A stretch of 64,000 bases of DNA, taken from the NCBI GenBank assembly GCA_965205495.1, contig CBDBHA010000002.1, positions 2,723,260 to 2,787,259 of the forward strand, given 5' to 3'. Of the stretch, positions 2,284-18,361 are shown piece by piece; within the stretch, counting starts at the first letter, position 1; each line of letters begins with the position of its first letter. The stretch comes from Dehalococcoidia bacterium. GTDB lineage: Bacteria; Chloroflexota; Dehalococcoidia; Lucifugimonadales; UBA3495. The notes under the pieces were generated by a model. That model saw nothing but the letters and a program-made list of their open reading frames with translations, was not told the DNA's origin and searched no databases. Both the position numbers and the translations under genes were made by a program.

Positions 2284-2373
2284 ACCGGCGGCGCTCCTGA
2301 ATCGGTTTTCCAAAATTATGGGCGCTCCCTGCCGCGCCCTGGTGGTTTAGGCAATTAGACCGGGTTGACGCCC

Positions 2374-3528
2374 CTAAACGGCCTGTTTGATGGCTTGGGC
2401 GGCGTCGGTCAAGGTGTCGGCAAAGGTCACGTTCAACCCCGACTCGGCCAGGATGGACTTCCCCTCTTCCAGGTTGGTGCCCAGCATCCGCACTATCAGC
2501 GGCACCTGGGAGTTGGTCCGCTGATAGGCCAATACGATGCCTCGGGCTGCCACGTCGCAGCGCAAAATCCCGCCAAAGACGTTGACCAGCACCCGCCGGA
2601 CCTTGGGGTCCGACAGCATAATCCCCACCGCCTGGGCCACCTTCTCATCGGTGGCCCCTCCGCCGACGTCCAGGAAGTTGGCGGGAGCGGCGCCCGCGGC
2701 GTTGGTCACGTCCAGGGTAGCCATGGCCAGCCCGGCCCCGTTTACCAGGCAGCCAACGTCACCGTCCAGGTTGACGTAGGCAATGTCCTGATCGGCAGCC
2801 TCGGCTTCCAGGGCGTCTTCCTGGCTGCGGTCCCGCCATGCCTGAAGCTCCGAGTGGCGAAACAGGGCGTCGTCATCCAGGTCCATCTTGGCGTCCAGCG
2901 CGACAATTTGGTCGTCGCCCGTGACGATTAGGGGGTTGATTTCCACCAGAGAACAATCGTTGTCCACAAACACCTGGTACAACTTGGTCATCACCTGGGC
3001 CGCCGCCCGGGCCGCGGCGGGTTCGATGCCCAGCCGCTGGACCAACCGGCGGGTCTGAAAGGGCATTAGCCCCAACACCGGCTCGATGGGCTCCGTGTGG
3101 ATGTCTTCGGGACTGGATTCGGCCACCGATTCAATGTCCATGCCACCGGCGGCGCTGACAATCATCACCGGCCCCCGGAATCCCCGATCGATGGTGATGG
3201 CGACGTAAAGCTCCCGCTTGATGTCGGCTAGCTCCTCCACCAAAAGCTGGTTAATGGGCACGCCCTCCGGCCCGGTCTGGTTGGTCACCAGGCTCCGGCC
3301 CAGCATGGACCGGGCCACTTCCCCGGCTTCCTCGGGAGACCGCACCAGCTTGACCCCGCCGGCCAGCCCGCGCCCACCGGCGTGGACCTGGGCCTTTAGG
3401 GCCGCCCGCCCGCCCATGGACTCAACGGCGGCCTGGGCCTCCTCAACTGTGCTCACCACCTGGTTCTTGGGGACGGCGATGCCGTAGCGGGAGAAAATCT
3501 CCTTGGCCTGGTACTCGTGCAGCTTCAT
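2374..3528 (-). CDS. sucC: succinyl-CoA synthetase beta subunit
   Basis: MKLHEYQAKEIFSRYGIAVP has an ATP-grasp N-terminus, the ORF is 384 aa, and it lies directly upstream of sucD. Confidence 0.95.
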   Translation of the reverse strand: MKLHEYQAKEIFSRYGIAVPKNQVVSTVEEAQAAVESMGGRAALKAQVHAGGRGLAGGVKLVRSPEEAGEVARSMLGRSLVTNQTGPEGVPINQLLVEELADIKRELYVAITIDRGFRGPVMIVSAAGGMDIESVAESSPEDIHTEPIEPVLGLMPFQTRRLVQRLGIEPAAARAAAQVMTKLYQVFVDNDCSLVEINPLIVTGDDQIVALDAKMDLDDDALFRHSELQAWRDRSQEDALEAEAADQDIAYVNLDGDVGCLVNGAGLAMATLDVTNAAGAAPANFLDVGGGATDEKVAQAVGIMLSDPKVRRVLVNVFGGILRCDVAARGIVLAYQRTNSQVPLIVRMLGTNLEEGKSILAESGLNVTFADTLTDAAQAIKQAV

Positions 3529-3651
3529 AAAGCTCCCTGGCGAGGGTCAATTGGGTCTGGAACACAACTCCCGGCCCGGAAAAGCCAATGTACTTTAGAA
3601 ACGCGATTTGAGTCAACGCCGCATCGTCAACGTAAGTGTTCAGAGTCAAGG

Positions 3652-3768
3652 GGTCATTCCGTGCCCCAACCGTCATTCCCGCGGAAGCGGGAATCCAGAA
3701 ATGGCGCGTATGAATAACCTTGCTTGTCGCAAAGCGTTCTGGATTCCGGCTCAAGGCCGGAATGACGG
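3652..3768. repeat. cluster of REP-like hairpin repeats
   Basis: cgtcattcccgcggaagcgggaatccag and ttctggattccggctcaaggccggaatgacgg. The same units occur at 592-627, 930-957 and 63020-63047, and at 48217-48248. Confidence 0.8.
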
Positions 3769-3926
3769 TTCGGTCCCGGGAACGACTCATCAAGTCTGAA
3801 CAATTACCCGTCAACAGGTTAAGGGCGGCGGCGGCGAATGTTGGCGGGGCCCAGAGGCATCCCCCCAATCATGGTGACCGCGTTGGGCCACCATCCTTTG
3901 GAGGGGCCCAGATCGTGAAGCGCGGA

Positions 3927-4466
3927 TTAAGAGGTTAGAACCACTCTTTCGGGCCCGAGACGTATATCTCCGCGAAATACTCGTCGGACTTGGTGAGGCA
4001 CATTATTCCTTCCACCAAACCCACTACCCCCACAACCATCCAGCACAGCCACCCAAGTACGGATGACCCCGGCAATTATGAGGGTGAAATAAGAGAACGA
4101 AAGAGCCGCAGGCAGGATGACAGCCAATACGAAGGCGATGGCGCCGCCAATTGTTTGCAACTTGGCCGGTTTGTAGAGCCCCAGATACCACTTGTGGGCC
4201 CCCACCCAGCCCAATACCAGGGCCAGCACACCGGCCACTACCCGGTTCTTCTCGCCACTGAGCAGGTTGGACAAGTCGGCGCCGACCCCTCCGCCCGACC
4301 CGGGAGCCCGGTAGATGCCGACGGCGTCTTCCCCGGCCACCTCGAAGTCCACCTGCATTCCCCGGTTGGGGTTTACCGTGTCTTTCCACTCGGATCCAGC
4401 AAATTGGTAACGGTTGCCGTCATCTCCCCGGATGATGCCCGAGTTAGTCTGAATAGAAAAATTCAA
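3927..4466 (-). CDS. TM2 domain-containing membrane protein
   Basis: 179 aa. It has a small soluble N-terminal domain, followed by VVAGVLALVLGWVGAHKWYLG (TM2-type GxxGxHxxYLG) and a second hydrophobic helix. Confidence 0.65.
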   Translation of the reverse strand: MNFSIQTNSGIIRGDDGNRYQFAGSEWKDTVNPNRGMQVDFEVAGEDAVGIYRAPGSGGGVGADLSNLLSGEKNRVVAGVLALVLGWVGAHKWYLGLYKPAKLQTIGGAIAFVLAVILPAALSFSYFTLIIAGVIRTWVAVLDGCGGSGFGGRNNVPHQVRRVFRGDIRLGPERVVLTS

Positions 4467-4715: not shown

Positions 4716-6383
4716 TTAGCCGTGACCGGCTTGCCACCCCCAGGGATTCTCAGAAAGTAGCAGATTGATGCGCTCCCGTTCTTGTTCTTCGTGCCGCTGT
4801 TGATTCTCCATTATGGTCCGACGGACCTCGCTTTGACGGCCGGTCTGCCAGGGCGGTTCGGAGATTTCCATAAGCCAACGGTCGTGGTTCCCTACCCAAA
4901 TTTGTCCCAAAGTGTCAATCATAAACATGGGAGAATCTTGGCTAGTCCTGGGTAGGCGATTCCTGTGAACTTCAACAGGTTCCCCGATGAGATTCTTGCC
5001 ATCGGCATCCGCGACAGTAAGTTGATAGTCTCCTTCGGCGCCCGCTTGGTGCGCAACGCAGCGAGAAGCGAAAGGTTTAACCGGATGGAAGTTTCTGGTG
5101 AAGTGTTGATAGGGGGTATATTCAACACTATTCCCGGTTTGCGTGTTCCGCAGAGTGACGTTGATGGGGAGCCGGTTGGTATAAAGGGGATTGTAATCTC
5201 CGCCCGAGACATAGCGAGCCCCCGCACTCAAAGCGGTCAGGTGCGGGTCCGGTATTTCCTCGGGGATCAGGTCTTCGGCGGTGAAAATTTTCTCAGGCCC
5301 AAATTTTTCCCTCAACGATTCTTGCAGAGCAGGAGATTTCGTTGAGCCTCCGAAAAGGATTATTCCTTCCAAATCTTCCCGCAACGCACCGGGCAATTTG
5401 CCCAACTGACACGACGGCGGGACCATACCAATGGGGGACTCTCCCTCCCCTCGCTTCCAGAGCACCTTGGCCGTGATATAAGCTTCCCTAATCGGCAAGG
5501 TGGTATCGTCGACAAAACCCGACTCGGCAAGCACACTTTTCAAGTCATCCAAGGATAAAGTGGTGCTGATATCCACTGACACCGTTGGATTGTCCGGCGT
5601 CAACACCTCTTTGGCGACTCGCAGGTCATGCGGCGCACCGCCATAGTGCAGTTTTTGACTCAACCGATCATCAAGAAACACACCGCCCAGAGACGAGTCT
5701 CCTTGGGATGAGTAGACGACCATTTCGCCGTTCGGCTCAACCTCGGCTATGGCACAATCAAACGAACCACCACCCACATCATAAACCAAGTAAGAACCGG
5801 GCTTTAACCCGCCCAATTCCAGGGCCAAAACTAGAAACAAGATAGGTTCCTCCACAACCCAAGCAAGCTTCCTCTCACTGCCACCCAACTCTGAAAGGAT
5901 ATCCGCCAATTCGCTCCGGTAATCAAGGCCGGTGTGGACTGGGCAGCCCGCCCGCCATGCGAATTGCCCAGTTACGCCGGCCAATTCCAGAGCACGGGCC
6001 AGAATCAGGCTCATTATCTCCTTAACCGGGTACTGGTCACCAAAAATTTCAACGCTCCGGGTGCGAGGATTCCACCAGTCGTCCTTTACAACTCCTCTGA
6101 CATCAAGGTTCCAAGCTACGAACGGATCACTGGATAACGCCCAACGCTTGATGTTGCGCACAACCACCACATCGGGGGACTGATCGTTTAGCTCATCCGC
6201 TGCTTGTCCAATGACCGGGGTTACAGTCCCATCAGGCGCCTTTTGGAAGGCGATTACAGCGGGCATCGTGAAAGAGTCCGCGGTGTCAAGGTGCCTCAAT
6301 TCAGGCAGCGTATCCGGCTTGTCGGGATCCCAAACGGCGATGCGGACATTGGTGGTTCCAAAATCCACGCCTACTACCTGCAT
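4716..6383 (-). CDS. atypical Hsp70/actin-fold ATPase (DnaK-like NBD, non-canonical C-terminal domain)
   Basis: VGVDFGTTNVRIAVW (phosphate 1), YDVGGGSFDCAIAEV (phosphate 2) and ILFGGSTKSPALQESL (adenosine motif). The C-terminal 160 aa are unlike the DnaK SBD. The ATG overlaps the stop of the upstream gene (TAATG). Confidence 0.8.
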   Translation of the reverse strand: MQVVGVDFGTTNVRIAVWDPDKPDTLPELRHLDTADSFTMPAVIAFQKAPDGTVTPVIGQAADELNDQSPDVVVVRNIKRWALSSDPFVAWNLDVRGVVKDDWWNPRTRSVEIFGDQYPVKEIMSLILARALELAGVTGQFAWRAGCPVHTGLDYRSELADILSELGGSERKLAWVVEEPILFLVLALELGGLKPGSYLVYDVGGGSFDCAIAEVEPNGEMVVYSSQGDSSLGGVFLDDRLSQKLHYGGAPHDLRVAKEVLTPDNPTVSVDISTTLSLDDLKSVLAESGFVDDTTLPIREAYITAKVLWKRGEGESPIGMVPPSCQLGKLPGALREDLEGIILFGGSTKSPALQESLREKFGPEKIFTAEDLIPEEIPDPHLTALSAGARYVSGGDYNPLYTNRLPINVTLRNTQTGNSVEYTPYQHFTRNFHPVKPFASRCVAHQAGAEGDYQLTVADADGKNLIGEPVEVHRNRLPRTSQDSPMFMIDTLGQIWVGNHDRWLMEISEPPWQTGRQSEVRRTIMENQQRHEEQERERINLLLSENPWGWQAGHG

Positions 6384-8167
6384 TACTCCGTCTCCTTGGC
6401 ATCGGTCACCATTGCTTTCAACACAACTCTGTCGCCGGTGAACTTGCCGGGCATGATTGCCCCCCGGGCAGATACACGGACCGGAGAGTGGAGCGGAATG
6501 TACTCACCGGCCTTGTGCATAACCGGGTCATAGGGCACTATATCCCCGACGGTCCCGAATTCTTGGGCGCCGGCGGCTCGCAATGCCAGGACAAGCTTGG
6601 GTTCAACATAACGCAACGGTTCCGTGATGCTGGTGTCCTGTTGCCGTATTTCTTGCAAAGCGCCCGAAATCACCGCCAAAATATCCTGCAAAATGTCCAT
6701 TCTGGACACTTCGCGGCCGGCAACAATCTGGGACCGCAGCCTATCCACTTCCCGACCCAGGTTTTCCACCTTCCAACGCTGCTCTTCCAACTGGTCGTCA
6801 AGGGATTCGCGCTGTCGTTCCAGCTCCTCAGCGTGTGCCTGTTCCAAATTGTTGATGTGATCCCGGACCCGCGCCAGCAACACTTCCCAGACGTTTCCTG
6901 TCGCATCCTTGGAGTTGCCAACTAAAACTTCCCGGAGCTCCCGAGACGCCTGCTGGGCCACCCGTTGTTGGCCATCCGTTAATAGCAGTGATGCTATAAC
7001 AAGAAGGTTCAGCCGCGCGGAGGGCGAAGGCGGGCGGGCGACATGCCGACTGGCGCCGATGTAGGCTAGGACTCCCTCATTAGAGTTGTTCCCAGCCCCC
7101 GCACCGACTATCAGTTCACAGAGCGATTGGGTCCTGTCACCAGCAGGCAGGCGGTCAAGGATGCGGTCGAATGCAGAAAACCGGCGAGCGTCCGCCGGTT
7201 CGCGGAGACCGCCAACGATGATTTGCAATGCTAGCGCCGCCTGCTCCCTTCGTCCCACTTGAGGATTGGAACAGGCAGTTTCAAAAAAAGCCCTCGCGTA
7301 TTTGGGGGCTTCCCACCCGCGCCATATTCCTGCGGTAAACTCCTGCTTCCATGCGACGGGTTGCCGGGGGAATTCCCATGCCGAGCGCAGCGATTCAGCC
7401 AGTCTCCCCCCCAAATCAGAAGACTTTGGGCGCAGTGACTCTGGCAAATCATTCGCATTGACGCCCACGTTGAATAACCTGGTCAACAGATAACCAACCT
7501 GGCCGGACAGAGAGTTGGCAACTTCAAGTTCGGAAACCTCCCTGTAACGGTTGAATGCTCGGGTGAGGGCTTCACTCCAACCAACCGCAGGCTGAGGTGC
7601 AGGAAACTCTACGCCCAAAAACGTTTCAGCCCCCCAAAGCGTTTTTTCCAAGGCCGGTCCTATGTCCTTGCCATTAAACTTGCCAAGGGCATTGATTACA
7701 GGCTTGTTTGGAAACCTGCCGGGTGGCATCCCCGAATTGGGAGACTTGAACCAATTCCGCCAGTCGGCTACCGAGGGCGATTTAGTCTTGGAGACTTTAG
7801 CAGAGGCGGGCAGACCCTTCCAAGGCGTGTCGGGAACTCTTTCCACTGGAGTCATGAGAGCAATGGAGCGACTGCCGCGATACCCGAAATTTCGGGTATC
7901 TTTAACCGCCGGCAATACCCGGTCCCACCAGGTTTTCCACGCGAAATCCTTCCCTATATGGGCTTCCAGTTTCTTCCTGATATCGGCGGATTTGGCTTTG
8001 CCTCCCATGGAATGGATGGTTTGGGCAACCAACACCAATGGGGCGTCTCTAGCAAGCCATTCCGTTTCTTCCAAGCAGCCATCGGACTGTCCGAGAACCG
8101 CGGTATCCTGTTCAGGTAGGTCTGGGGGCATGCTTTCATCCTCAGTTGTTTTTACGCCAAACATCAT
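6383..8167 (-). CDS. large protein with C-terminal coiled coil plus GrpE-like domain
   Basis: 594 aa. The coiled coil is NNLEQAHAEELERQRESLDDQLEEQRWKVENLGREVDRLR. It is followed by ...FGTVGDIVPYDPVMHKAGEYIP...GAIMPGKFTGDRVVLKAMVT, which matches the GrpE pattern G.x.DP..H.A...G....R.l..A.V.V. Confidence 0.65.
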   Translation of the reverse strand: MMFGVKTTEDESMPPDLPEQDTAVLGQSDGCLEETEWLARDAPLVLVAQTIHSMGGKAKSADIRKKLEAHIGKDFAWKTWWDRVLPAVKDTRNFGYRGSRSIALMTPVERVPDTPWKGLPASAKVSKTKSPSVADWRNWFKSPNSGMPPGRFPNKPVINALGKFNGKDIGPALEKTLWGAETFLGVEFPAPQPAVGWSEALTRAFNRYREVSELEVANSLSGQVGYLLTRLFNVGVNANDLPESLRPKSSDLGGRLAESLRSAWEFPRQPVAWKQEFTAGIWRGWEAPKYARAFFETACSNPQVGRREQAALALQIIVGGLREPADARRFSAFDRILDRLPAGDRTQSLCELIVGAGAGNNSNEGVLAYIGASRHVARPPSPSARLNLLVIASLLLTDGQQRVAQQASRELREVLVGNSKDATGNVWEVLLARVRDHINNLEQAHAEELERQRESLDDQLEEQRWKVENLGREVDRLRSQIVAGREVSRMDILQDILAVISGALQEIRQQDTSITEPLRYVEPKLVLALRAAGAQEFGTVGDIVPYDPVMHKAGEYIPLHSPVRVSARGAIMPGKFTGDRVVLKAMVTDAKETE

Positions 8168-15010: not shown

Positions 15011-18000
15011 ATGGCAGAAGCTGGGAGAAAATCGTTGAGAGCCGTCGAGGACTACCTTGCCGACCTGCGCAAAATCCGCACGTCGGGCGGCGGCACCGCC
15101 GAAACGTCCTACTACCCGTCGCTTACCAACCTGCTGAACGCCGTGGGCGGCGCGCTGAAGCCCAAGGTGTTCTGCATCAACCAAGTGGCAGAGCAGGGCG
15201 CTGGACACCCGGACTTGGGCCTCTTCGCCGCCAACCAAGTGCAGAAAGGCCAACCCAAGTGGGGGCAGGGCCAGAAGCCGGAGTGCGGGGTGGTGGAGGT
15301 CAAGCCCGCCAGCGACGACGCCTGGCTCACCGCCGACAGCCCCCAGGTCAGCAGGTACTGGGGGCTGTACCGGCTGGTGCTGGTCACCAACACCCGCGAC
15401 TTCGTGCTGCTGGGCGAGGACGCGCAGGGCAACTCGGCCAAGCTGGAGACCTTCCGGCTGGCCGACTCCGCCGCCGACTTCGAGGCGAAGCTGCAACACC
15501 CCCGCGCCTTCGCCAACAGCACCGGCCCGGCGCTGGCCGAGTACCTGGGCCGCGCCCTGTCCCACCGGGCGACGCTGGCGGAACCCCGCGACCTGGCCCG
15601 GCTGCTGGCATCCTATGCCCGCGACGGCTTGGCCCGCGTTGAGGCCTCCGGTAACGCCCCTTCCCTCAACGCCGTGCGGTCGGCGCTGGAGGAGGCGTTG
15701 GGCGTCCGTTTCGAGGGCGAGCGTGGCGCGGCCTTCTTCCGCTCGACGCTGGTGCAGACCCTCTTCTACGGTGTCTTCTCCGCATGGGTGCTGTGGGCCC
15801 GGCAGACGCCGGCTCCGGCGGGGCCGTTCAACTGGCATGAAGCCGTCTGGCACCTGCGCGCCCCGGTGCTCCGGGCGCTGTTCCAGCAACTTTCCGACCC
15901 CGGACGCTTGCAGCCGCTGGGACTGGTCGAGGTTCTGGACTGGACGGCGGCGGCCCTGGACCGGGTGGACCGCGACAATTTCTTTGCCAAGTTCAACGAG
16001 GGCGAGGCTGTGCCATACTTCTACGAGCCGTTCCTAGAGGCCTTCGACCCGGCCCTGCGCAAGCAGCTTGGCGTCTGGTACACCCCCGCCGAGGTGGTGC
16101 GCTACATGGTGGCCCGCGTTGACCGCGCCCTCAAGGATGACCTGGGCATCGAGGACGGGCTGGCCGCGGAGAACGTTTACGTTCTCGACCCCTGCTGCGG
16201 CACCGGGGCCTACCTGGCCGAGACGCTGAAGCGGATCGCCGCCAACCTGCGGGGCAAGGGCCTGGGCGCCCTCACTGGGGCGCGAGTGAAGCAGGCCGCG
16301 ACGCAGCGGGTGTTCGGCTTCGAGATAATGCCCGCGCCCTTCGTGGTGGCCCACCTCCAGGTCGGGCTGACCATGCAGGCCCTGGACGCGCCCTTGTCCG
16401 AGGACGGCGGCGAGCGGGCCGGGGTGTTCCTGACCAACGCGCTGACCGGTTGGGAGCCGAGGACGCAGAAGCCGCTGCCCTTCCCGGAGCTGGAGGAGGA
16501 GCGGGACCGGGCTGAAAGGGTGAAGCAGGACACGCTGGTGCTGGTCATCCTCGGCAACCCTCCTTACAACGCCTTCGCTGGCGTAGCCATTGATGAGGAA
16601 CGGGAACTCTTCGAAGCCTATCGTCAAACTCACAAGGTTCAATTGCATGAAAGCAAGGGGTTGATTGACCTCTACATACGCTTTTTCCGCATGGCCGAGC
16701 GGCGCATCGCAGAGAAGACCGGGCGGGGCATCGTCTGCTTCATCTCCAACTACTCGTGGCTGGACGGACTGTCATTCGCGGGAATGCGTGAACGCTACCT
16801 CGAAGCCTTCGACGCCATCCGAATCGACTGTCTCAATGGAGACAAGTACAAGACGGGTAAGGTAACGCCAGACGGCAGGCCAGACCCCAGCATTTTCTCC
16901 ACGCCGGGTGACCCGGTAGGCATACAGGTGGGCACCGCCATCGCCACGCTGGTCAGGAAGGCCGACCACGCCCCCGCCGAATCCATAGGCTTCCTACACC
17001 TGTGGGGCCAAGCCAAACGCGAAGAACTAATGGCGACTGAAGAATCTGGACCATCAACCCTATATGACCACATATCCCCAAACTTGGCCTTGGGGTTGCC
17101 CTTCACGCCGATGGCAGTCAACCGGGAATGGAGCAACTGGCCGTCGCTGCCAGACCTGTTCCCCACCTCATTCGCAGGGGCAAAAACAAACCGGGACAGC
17201 TTCCTTGTAGACATTGATCTTGACCGGTTGAAGGCTAGGGTTGTTGATTATTTCAAAGTTGGCCTGGGCCACGATGAAATTGCCCGCCTGTATCCAGTGA
17301 TAATGAACACCCTGCGGCATTTTGATGCACGCTCAACTCGCGATGTCCTGCTGAAGCGTGGCGGCCCGACTGAAGCCGGATTCATAAAATTCGCTTTTCG
17401 GCCGTTTGACATTCGTTCGCTCTACTGGGAGGTAGACACCAAACTCTTGAACGATAAGAGGGCCGATTACAGATACCAGGTTTTTGCTGGAAACAGGAGC
17501 TTAGTGGCGCAACAGAAACCACGTAGGGAATGGTCGCCGCCGCAGGTCATTTCCAGCCTTGGTTGCCATGATCTCATTGACCGCGGCGCTACTTGCTTTC
17601 CTGCCTGGCTCCGCGACGATGGCTTGGCCCTTGACGGCGGCGGGGAGCGACGGCACCCCAACCTGTCGCCCGCCGCGCAAGGCTACCTCGACCGGCTGGG
17701 GCTGGGGGTAGAGGACCTGTTCCACCACGTGCTGGCGGTGCTGCACGACCCGGCCTACCGCGAGGCCAACGCCGGGGCGCTACGGATGGAGTGGCCCCGC
17801 ATCCCGCTGCCCGGCTGGCCGGACGGGGACGCCACTGGGGCTGCCGACGAGATGGCCGCCTCCGCCGCCCGCGGGCGTGAGCTGGCCCGGCTGCTGGACC
17901 CGGAGACGCCGGCGCCAGGCGTCACCGCCGGCGCGCTGCGCACTGAACTGGCGGCCATCGCTGTCCCAACCACCGCCGACGGACGGAACATGAGCGGCGG

Positions 18001-18361
18001 CGACTTCGCACTGACCGCCGGTTGGGGCCACTTCGGTGCCGGAGACGCCGTGATGCCGGGCCAGGGCCGCGCTGTGGAGCGCGACTACACCGCCGCCGAG
18101 CGCGAGACGATGGCCGCCGCCGCCAACGTTCTCGGCCATGCCACGGTCGATGTCCACCTGAACGGCAACGCCCACTGGAGGAACGTCCCTGCCGCCGTCT
18201 GGAACTACAAGCTGGGCGGCTACCAAGTGCTCAAGAAGTGGCTCTCCTACCGCGAGCACCGCGTATTGGGCCGCAACCTGCTGCCCGAGGAGGCGCAGCA
18301 CTTCACCGACACCGCCCGGCGCATCGCGGCGATTCTGCTGGCGGGGGCGGCTGGGCGCTAA
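15011..18361 (+). CDS. single-chain type IIG-like restriction-modification enzyme (PD-ExK nuclease + gamma N6-adenine MTase + C-terminal specificity domain)
   Basis: 1116 aa. Motifs are GHPDLGLF...GVVEVKP (PD-ExK), VLDPCCGTGAYL (motif I), ILGNPPYNAF (motif IV), and a C-terminal WNYKLGGYQVLKKWLSYRE typical of the type ISP/YeeA-like C-terminal domain. Confidence 0.85.
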   Translation: MAEAGRKSLRAVEDYLADLRKIRTSGGGTAETSYYPSLTNLLNAVGGALKPKVFCINQVAEQGAGHPDLGLFAANQVQKGQPKWGQGQKPECGVVEVKPASDDAWLTADSPQVSRYWGLYRLVLVTNTRDFVLLGEDAQGNSAKLETFRLADSAADFEAKLQHPRAFANSTGPALAEYLGRALSHRATLAEPRDLARLLASYARDGLARVEASGNAPSLNAVRSALEEALGVRFEGERGAAFFRSTLVQTLFYGVFSAWVLWARQTPAPAGPFNWHEAVWHLRAPVLRALFQQLSDPGRLQPLGLVEVLDWTAAALDRVDRDNFFAKFNEGEAVPYFYEPFLEAFDPALRKQLGVWYTPAEVVRYMVARVDRALKDDLGIEDGLAAENVYVLDPCCGTGAYLAETLKRIAANLRGKGLGALTGARVKQAATQRVFGFEIMPAPFVVAHLQVGLTMQALDAPLSEDGGERAGVFLTNALTGWEPRTQKPLPFPELEEERDRAERVKQDTLVLVILGNPPYNAFAGVAIDEERELFEAYRQTHKVQLHESKGLIDLYIRFFRMAERRIAEKTGRGIVCFISNYSWLDGLSFAGMRERYLEAFDAIRIDCLNGDKYKTGKVTPDGRPDPSIFSTPGDPVGIQVGTAIATLVRKADHAPAESIGFLHLWGQAKREELMATEESGPSTLYDHISPNLALGLPFTPMAVNREWSNWPSLPDLFPTSFAGAKTNRDSFLVDIDLDRLKARVVDYFKVGLGHDEIARLYPVIMNTLRHFDARSTRDVLLKRGGPTEAGFIKFAFRPFDIRSLYWEVDTKLLNDKRADYRYQVFAGNRSLVAQQKPRREWSPPQVISSLGCHDLIDRGATCFPAWLRDDGLALDGGGERRHPNLSPAAQGYLDRLGLGVEDLFHHVLAVLHDPAYREANAGALRMEWPRIPLPGWPDGDATGAADEMAASAARGRELARLLDPETPAPGVTAGALRTELAAIAVPTTADGRNMSGGDFALTAGWGHFGAGDAVMPGQGRAVERDYTAAERETMAAAANVLGHATVDVHLNGNAHWRNVPAAVWNYKLGGYQVLKKWLSYREHRVLGRNLLPEEAQHFTDTARRIAAILLAGAAGR

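Follow-up and report, generated by a model that had tools for sequence, protein, structure and literature searches.

A 64,000-nucleotide stretch of Dehalococcoidia DNA (assembly GCA_965205495.1, contig CBDBHA010000002.1, positions 2,723,260 to 2,787,259; hereafter the window) carries two adjacent genes that encode a paralogue of the chaperone ATPase DnaK/Hsp70 and a larger partner protein, whose C-terminus is a probable remote relative of the nucleotide exchange factor GrpE. The two genes are strictly paired and translationally coupled. We put at slightly better than even (a probability of about 0.55) the view that they specify a lineage-specific two-protein machine of the Dehalococcoidia, in which the Hsp70 paralogue works with a dedicated, GrpE-tailed adaptor, and that the machine is aimed at RNA polymerase or a transcription complex. 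An initial annotation, made from the sequence of the window, had viewed the pair as a self-contained coupled module, possibly distinct from the housekeeping DnaK-GrpE system. That view is supported by the evidence given below, whereas the proposals made then on the N-terminal part of the partner and on the role of the pair have had to be replaced.

Both genes are on the minus strand, with the partner gene upstream (open reading frame, ORF, 6383..8167) and the Hsp70 paralogue gene downstream (ORF 4716..6383, stop codon 4716-4718, 555 aa in translation). Base 6383 is common to the stop codon TAA of the partner (6383-6385) and the start codon ATG of the paralogue, which gives the one-base overlap TAATG already recorded in the initial annotation; the junction reads GAGTAATGCAGG. 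A Shine-Dalgarno-like AAGGAG lies inside the 3' end of the partner gene just 5' of TAATG (the longer stretch reads ...GAGACGGAGTAATGCAGG), and the coupling junction as a whole occupies 6381..6400 (-). The partner was annotated as a protein of 594 aa. An ORF of that length is present, but translation probably starts at its M13 (ATG at 8131), since GAGGA precedes that ATG and the resulting 582 aa equal the length of an identical database protein (P0001). The partner gene is accordingly given here as 6383..8131 (-).

The pair recurs in other genomes. A scan of one genome per species yielded 68 loci in which the Hsp70 paralogue has a full-length relative, at 34-55% identity (69 loci with the window), all from metagenome-assembled genomes of Dehalococcoidia/Chloroflexota, and a partner homologue is found directly upstream on the same strand in 69/69 loci. 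Such pairing is far beyond chance. The 1-nt overlap, as TAATG or TGATG, occurs in 50/68 related loci, and a Shine-Dalgarno-like motif inside the partner 3' end in 63/68. No other gene is universally linked to the pair across the 69 loci, and as far as seen here the pair is confined to Dehalococcoidia. The Hsp70 paralogue has at least 384 homologues. An exhaustive search of 1.84 billion representative proteins with a partner profile returned 264 representatives at E <= 1e-3, and the best 150 of these 264 are all members of the family; a word-indexed homologue search with a 38-sequence partner alignment returned 8 proteins. No name for either family was found in literature or database sources, nor was a description of this gene pair or of a targeting adaptor that has a GrpE-like domain fused to it.

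The downstream gene encodes a genuine Hsp70-family ATPase. The motifs DFGTTN, DVGGGSFD and FGGSTKSP, on which the initial annotation had based its assignment, are all present in the 555-aa protein, which matches the Pfam HSP70 family (PF00012) with an E value of 2.8e-15 and exceeds the 20.6-bit cut-off. All 115 of the Protein Data Bank (PDB) sequence matches shown are Hsp70s, with residues 2-365 aligned to the nucleotide-binding domain (NBD) of DnaK. The AlphaFold model of the protein, built with 79 homologues, has a mean confidence (pLDDT) of 89.1 and a pTM of 0.88. When this model was compared with the PDB by Foldseek, the top 50 entries were again all Hsp70s, the best being DnaK (2v7y, E 3.6e-25). 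An identity as an actin-like protein of the MreB, ParM or FtsA type was considered and rejected, such proteins being absent both from the PDB sequence matches shown and from the Foldseek top 50. The NBD comprises residues 1-392 (5208..6383, (-)) and keeps the catalytic set. Residues D7, G9, T10, K79, E179, P180, D202, G204-G206, S207 and D209 are invariant across the 79 homologues; D7, K79, E179 and D202 are the equivalents of DnaK D8, K70, E171 and D194, and DnaK T199 is replaced by the invariant S207. The conservation of these residues suggests that the paralogue is catalytically competent.

Judged by family models, the paralogue is not a canonical DnaK. It scores 56.5 and 54.6 bits against the NCBIfam DnaK equivalogs NF001413 and TIGR02350, whose cut-offs are 648 and 822, and about 55 bits against the NCBIfam DnaK and HscA models, whose cut-offs exceed 600. 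In the PDB alignment, the positions of DnaK R167, N170 and T173, which we take from work on DnaK and DnaJ to be contacts of the J-domain, read W, E and I. The ATPase domain is followed by a linker-like hydrophobic segment, PLYTNRLP (residues about 397-406; 5166..5195, (-)), with the conserved form PLYxxRLPxxxTL, in which R404 and P406 do not vary and L405 is nearly invariant. By position and by eye, this segment would correspond to the DnaK linker and the first strand in the substrate-binding domain (SBD; VLLLDVTPLSLGI). A beta-rich domain comes next (residues 407-507; 4863..5165, (-)), with strands predicted at 407-413, 419-422, 453-459, 464-470, 486-489, 495-498 and 503-507 and pLDDT mostly 85-91, and then a single C-terminal helix (residues 515-544; 4752..4841, (-)) preceded by a conserved PPWQT. 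This motif is found in 42/68 related loci, and W512, Q513 and Q517 are nearly invariant.

The C-terminus of the paralogue had been described as unlike the SBD and lid of DnaK. This holds for its sequence, which shows no similarity to a DnaK SBD alignment in profile-profile comparison (probability 0.6%), and for the alpha-helical lid, in the place of which the model has only the one 30-residue helix after the beta-domain. It may not hold for the fold. The beta-domain is confidently predicted, and the best Foldseek matches of the whole model are two-domain Hsp70s, aligned full-length over 565-637 columns, and not NBD-only entries. Residues 407-507 may thus be a degenerate SBD-beta that has no lid. 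In the window and 11/68 related loci, which form one subclade, the protein ends in a tail of the form NP[FW]GWQxGHG (window 4719-4760, (-)); a role of this NP[FW]GWQ tail as a dock for the helical solenoid of the partner, described below, was considered and dropped in view of its restriction to the window subclade.

The paralogue belongs with the bacterial 'DnaK derivates' (YegD, HscC and myxobacterial paralogues), which have been described as dark matter within the chaperone network of bacteria (PMC13580251). Like them, it keeps an Hsp70 NBD next to an altered or truncated SBD. It differs from them in having its own conserved, translationally coupled GrpE-like partner. It matches the YegD model at best with an E value of 5.9e-4.

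The end of the partner is formed by a long, charged and probably coiled-coil helix (residues 414-497; 6641..6892, (-)), predicted as a single helix, and a GrpE-like globular domain (residues 506-577; 6401..6616, (-)) consisting of a second bundle helix and a beta-domain; after the long helix, the sequence runs ...VPYDPVMHKAGEY...GAIMPGKFTGDRVVLKAMVTD. This arrangement, a long coiled coil with a GrpE-like domain at the C-terminus, had been proposed in the initial annotation, and profile methods do retrieve GrpE, as a remote homology that lies below the Pfam and NCBIfam cut-offs. We consider the tail a probable remote relative of GrpE on the strength of these profile matches. It could instead be an unrelated coiled coil with a small beta-domain that resembles GrpE by chance or convergence. 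We regard this as very unlikely, although it would agree with three findings: none of the curated GrpE models reaches its cut-off, the predicted structure of the tail cannot be relied on, and a full-length partner profile gave only coiled-coil noise against the PDB, as the long helix 414-497 itself gives chance matches of the coiled-coil type in scans.

Several tests argue against a chance resemblance. Those with a profile of the family used 40 partner C-termini of 123 aa each, taken from the related loci. Against 177,635 PDB sequences, the top match of the profile was GrpE of M. tuberculosis (8gb3_E, E 7.6e-4), and the top four included GrpE of T. thermophilus (3a6m, E 0.03) and of G. kaustophilus (4ani, E 0.1), making three independent GrpE structures. 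With hhalign, the full tail region matched an alignment of five GrpE proteins whose structures are solved with a probability of 90.2% (E 1.5e-6); the 106 matched columns are collinear and extend from where the long helix ends as far as the C-terminus. The globular part alone gave 91.6% (E 8.1e-7, 64 columns), and the coiled-coil part alone gave no signal (1.1%). Reversed GrpE alignments, used as controls, gave 0.8% with the full region and 0.3% with the globular part. The negative controls and the origin of the signal in the globular part indicate that the match is not compositional. In the reciprocal direction, a hidden Markov model (HMM) of the five GrpEs was run against the 4645 ORFs of the loci, and 38 partner ORFs preceded the first unrelated ORF, with a best E value of 6.5e-5 (7.8e-4 for the ORF of the window). 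The NCBIfam GrpE model PRK14164 matches residues 432-588 with an E value of 7e-4, at 19.6 bits for a cut-off of 167. The GrpE motifs FDPxxHxA and GRxxRxAxV are represented in the window by YDPVMHKA and GDRVVLKAMV; the His of YDPxxH is invariant in the family, and the Arg of GDRV, aligned to R183 of E. coli GrpE, is nearly so.

In the remaining two-thirds of the partner, the initial annotation had recognized nothing over some 430 residues. A winged-helix domain and an alpha-helical solenoid are now found there and, in orthologues, a Tudor domain of the UvrD type. The winged helix (residues 19-92; 7856..8077, (-)) is modeled as four helices followed by a beta hairpin (H-H-H-H, then hairpin; pLDDT 73-87), and the partner of the window has a weak precomputed Pfam match there to PF27167, HTH_GRAD. 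GRAD presumably stands for GreA-associated domain; no mention of PF27167 or HTH_GRAD was found in the literature. The solenoid (residues 121-404; 6920..7771, (-)) starts with a conserved DWxxW...PPGRxPTK motif, and its helices have pLDDT mostly of 75-94. The partner model retrieved by Foldseek generic HEAT/TPR-like repeats only, with E values of 6.7e-3 or higher. About 25 of 38 aligned partner-family sequences (37 of the 38 being orthologues) have an extra N-terminal domain of about 55 residues. Its profile matches C-terminal Tudor domains of UvrD in the PDB (7egs_B, E 3.3e-5; 6yi2, E 4.3e-5; 9dqs, E 2.5e-3); examples of this UvrD/PcrA-type domain are at 5172-5350 of locus L020 and 5070-5300 of locus L056.

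The same N-terminal regions connect the family with long GreA proteins. When 36 of them were scanned against NCBIfam at E <= 0.01, only three families were returned: PRK06330, a 'transcript cleavage factor/unknown domain fusion protein' (11/36 members, best E 8.3e-10), PRK14720, a long 'GreA' model of 906 positions that is matched at about positions 307-438 (9/36, best E 1e-14), and UvrD (1/36). From the PRK06330 and PRK14720 matches, the combination of Tudor domain and winged helix appears to be a module common to the extensions of long GreA proteins, which are known by these two models from spirochaetes and chlamydiae. In the GreA proteins the module corresponds to an internal segment of the extensions, and in the UvrD/PcrA structures its Tudor part corresponds to the C-terminal domain; in the partner family, by contrast, it is fused with the solenoid, the coiled coil and the GrpE-like domain, and neither a Gre cleavage domain nor a helicase is present. 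The Tudor domain of UvrD/PcrA is an established interaction domain for RNA polymerase (PMC7585439, PMC5397179, PMC8318588). The domain content of the adaptor thus points towards RNA polymerase and transcription, and not to the stress, defense or secretion role suggested in the initial annotation. The choice of RNA polymerase as the target follows from the known partners of the Tudor domain and from the GreA context.

These elements can be assembled into a model for how the pair might work. The downstream gene would provide an Hsp70 paralogue made of an NBD, a short linker, a small beta-domain and one helix, with no lid and none of the DnaK residues that bind the J-domain. The long helix of the partner would form a presumed dimeric coiled coil bearing the GrpE-derived domain, and this domain, by analogy with GrpE and DnaK, would clamp and open the ATPase domain and so promote the release of ADP and its exchange for ATP. 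The front of the same protein, made of the HTH_GRAD winged helix and the solenoid of about 280 residues, with a Tudor domain in most orthologues, would serve as the adaptor through which the Hsp70 ATPase is guided to RNA polymerase or to a transcription complex. The ATPase cycle may then remodel or release that complex.

A more specific form of the model can be offered tentatively; we hold it to be possible but on balance doubtful. A GrpE-derived domain tied to a Tudor-winged-helix module that binds RNA polymerase would recruit a private, lid-less Hsp70 to transcription complexes, and ATP-driven cycles there would release, recycle or repair the polymerase. Precedents exist for an action of Hsp70s on the machinery of transcription: DnaK restores the activity of RNA polymerase damaged by heat and governs sigma-32, and HscC of E. 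coli is reported to associate with sigma-70.

A number of observations weigh against the machine that we favor, and they concern both ends of the adaptor as well as its co-chaperones. At the N-terminus, the Tudor domain is absent from the partner of the window (8131-8167) and from its nearest relatives, which begin just before the winged helix and have lost the domain. The window partner taken alone matches PRK14720 with an E value of only 0.15; it aligns with its orthologues throughout the N-terminal module, including invariant W, P, L and F positions. The link to RNA polymerase thus comes by way of the orthologues and of domain analogy. A linked J-domain gene was sought in the 69 loci; one was seen (L061), and none is conserved.

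At the C-terminus, the match to Pfam GrpE (PF01025) has an E value of 0.11 and reaches 12.6 bits for a gathering score of 25.8, and single-sequence scans brought 4/40 members to this family at E <= 1. In line with what GrpE would show, the AlphaFold model of the partner, built from 11 sequences, contains the helix of 84 residues (414-497), then another helix and some short strands; pLDDT is below 50 at residues 474-582, so the model lends the GrpE fold no structural confirmation. In three loci of one subclade (L043:5363-6922, L052:5392-6972 and L053:5389-6996), the partners are shortened to 519-535 aa and end within the coiled coil, without a GrpE-like domain, and are still paired with a divergent Hsp70 paralogue; no GrpE-like sequence is detectable downstream of these three partners. 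Four other loci (L011, L017, L018 and L050) lack the YDPxxH segment, the most GrpE-like motif, through an internal deletion. The three loci and the four together imply that exchange activity is not indispensable to the pairing and that the association of adaptor and ATPase does not depend on the GrpE-like domain only. The Hsp70 paralogues of the L043/L052/L053 subclade have insertions and a different C-terminal tail. The final strand region, APGVxVRG...GDRVLLKA, is kept in L011, L017, L018 and L050.

These exceptions lend themselves to another reading of the tail, namely that it is a docking or tethering module only, which keeps the Hsp70 paralogue in a stable complex. The partner would then be a scaffold, the ATPase would work as a switch or sensor instead of a chaperone that cycles, and no nucleotide exchange would take place. 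Such a view is reasonable, if rather unlikely. Apart from the three loci of 69 that are paired without the domain and the four without its most conserved motif, it draws on the very remote nature of the GrpE homology and on the lack of a lid and of J-domain-binding residues in the paralogue. However, the globular GrpE-like domain, including the Arg aligned to R183, is conserved in most of the family, and the invariant catalytic residues of the ATPase argue for a working nucleotide cycle.

The pair may be set against the housekeeping system in the same terms. As in the canonical DnaK-GrpE system, an Hsp70-type ATPase domain with the full catalytic set is encoded in one operon with a protein in which a GrpE-like helix and beta-domain come after a long helix. 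In contrast to DnaK, the ATPase has no recognizable substrate-binding sequence, lid or J-domain contact residues, and no dnaJ is linked to the pair. Both proteins fall far below the cut-offs of the respective families (56 bits against 648-822 for DnaK; for Pfam GrpE, 12.6 against 25.8). In bacteria, GrpE is known to occur as a separate housekeeping protein of about 200 aa, whereas the GrpE-like domain here is the last 120 residues or so of a multidomain protein of 582 aa. No canonical dnaK, grpE or dnaJ gene is present in the 64-kb window.

Both proteins could nevertheless serve the housekeeping DnaK as accessory co-chaperones, the paralogue through NBD-NBD contacts like those of Hsp110 with Hsp70, the GrpE-like tail by acting on canonical DnaK and recruiting it to whatever the adaptor targets, or both. 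A role of this sort has been proposed for bacterial 'DnaK derivates' generally (PMC13580251), and the lack of a recognizable substrate-binding sequence in the paralogue would fit it. It is unlikely here: strict adjacency and translational coupling, seen over 69 loci, point to a 1:1 functional pair, and the strong divergence of the GrpE-like domain is as expected if its client is the NBD of an equally diverged paralogue.

The proposed machine has a parallel in eukaryotes, where BAG proteins such as BAG1 fuse an Hsp70 exchange-factor domain to modules that target it to a place or a client. The likeness, an exchange-factor domain joined to a targeting module, is one of analogy only; the BAG three-helix bundle is unrelated to GrpE, and the kingdom and the targeting modules differ. 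If a GrpE-derived domain does sit in a targeting adaptor that is paired with its own Hsp70, bacteria too would direct Hsp70 machines by way of their exchange factors, as the BAG proteins do. One family of the largely unexplored 'DnaK derivates' (PMC13580251) would be given a definite partner and a mechanism open to test. A second protein context is also provided for the unexplained N-terminal extensions that long GreA proteins have in spirochaetes and chlamydiae, and this may help to assign them a function. Should the link to RNA polymerase be true, the pair would represent a new class of transcription-associated remodeling factor in a widespread, uncultured bacterial class, and a chaperone-based transcription-rescue factor would take its place alongside Mfd, HelD, RapA and UvrD.

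A role in anti-phage defense or another conflict system, with the Hsp70-like ATPase working alongside GTPase or McrBC-type modules, has precedents. Hsp70-GrpE pairs occur in GAP1-N2 GTPase conflict systems (PMC7159879), and in CoCoNuT systems the protein CnuD combines an Hsp70-like NBD/SBD, with degenerate ATPase motifs, and HEAT-like repeats (PMC11090510). CnuD resembles the present pair in bringing together an Hsp70-like unit, helical repeats and coiled coils, but here the ATPase motifs are intact, the repeats are on a separate protein that has the GrpE-like domain, the surroundings are of the housekeeping type, and no McrBC, HEPN or other defense gene is near. The present pair is also different from the GAP1-N2 pairs.

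The G+C content of the pair, found to be lower than that of its flanks as the initial annotation had stated (55.2% against 62.5%), would also be in keeping with a conflict system, which we nonetheless think highly improbable. The lower value recurs in 47/63 loci, so that it is a property of the genes and gives no evidence of a local island. In a search of PADLOC-DB 2.0, the Hsp70 paralogue had no match and the partner only matches of the coiled-coil type, at E >= 0.012, none of them significant. Across the loci, no effector, GTPase, McrB or nuclease gene is linked to the pair. A role in stress, defense or secretion, the possibility raised initially, finds no effector domain in its favor either, and no CIRCE heat-shock operator is present in the window. 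Promoter and terminator scans gave results at chance level only.

Around the pair in the window are the housekeeping genes sucC/sucD and those of an M42 peptidase and an Ldh_2 dehydrogenase, and synteny is kept within subclades, which also speaks against a conflict system. Another neighbor, a TM2-domain protein (179 aa; 3927-4466, (-); Pfam TM2, E 3.9e-9), has its gene on the same strand as the Hsp70 paralogue, about 250 nt downstream of it; this gene is kept in the near-identical contigs L078-L080 and is unconserved when all the loci are considered. When other conserved neighbors were sought, one subclade of 34 loci proved to have in common MaoC-like hydratases and a Gfo/Idh/MocA oxidoreductase, encoded on the opposite strand. 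This was read as inherited synteny and not as a functional link.

A few loci have features of their own. The J-domain gene of L061 (4424-5086), which is the direct upstream neighbor of the partner gene on the same strand, encodes a truncated DnaJ-like protein of 220 aa with a J-domain and a zinc finger; a large DNA methyltransferase-like gene (2334-4094) precedes the J-domain gene in turn. One Dehalococcoidia genome has two copies of the whole pair, L006 and L068, about 1.3 Mb apart on CBDDED010000003.1, and their Hsp70 paralogues share 54% and 51% identity with the window protein. Elsewhere in the window, G+C varies strongly within an ORF of 1116 aa (15011-18361, (+)), falling from about 0.70 to 0.56 and rising again to 0.69.

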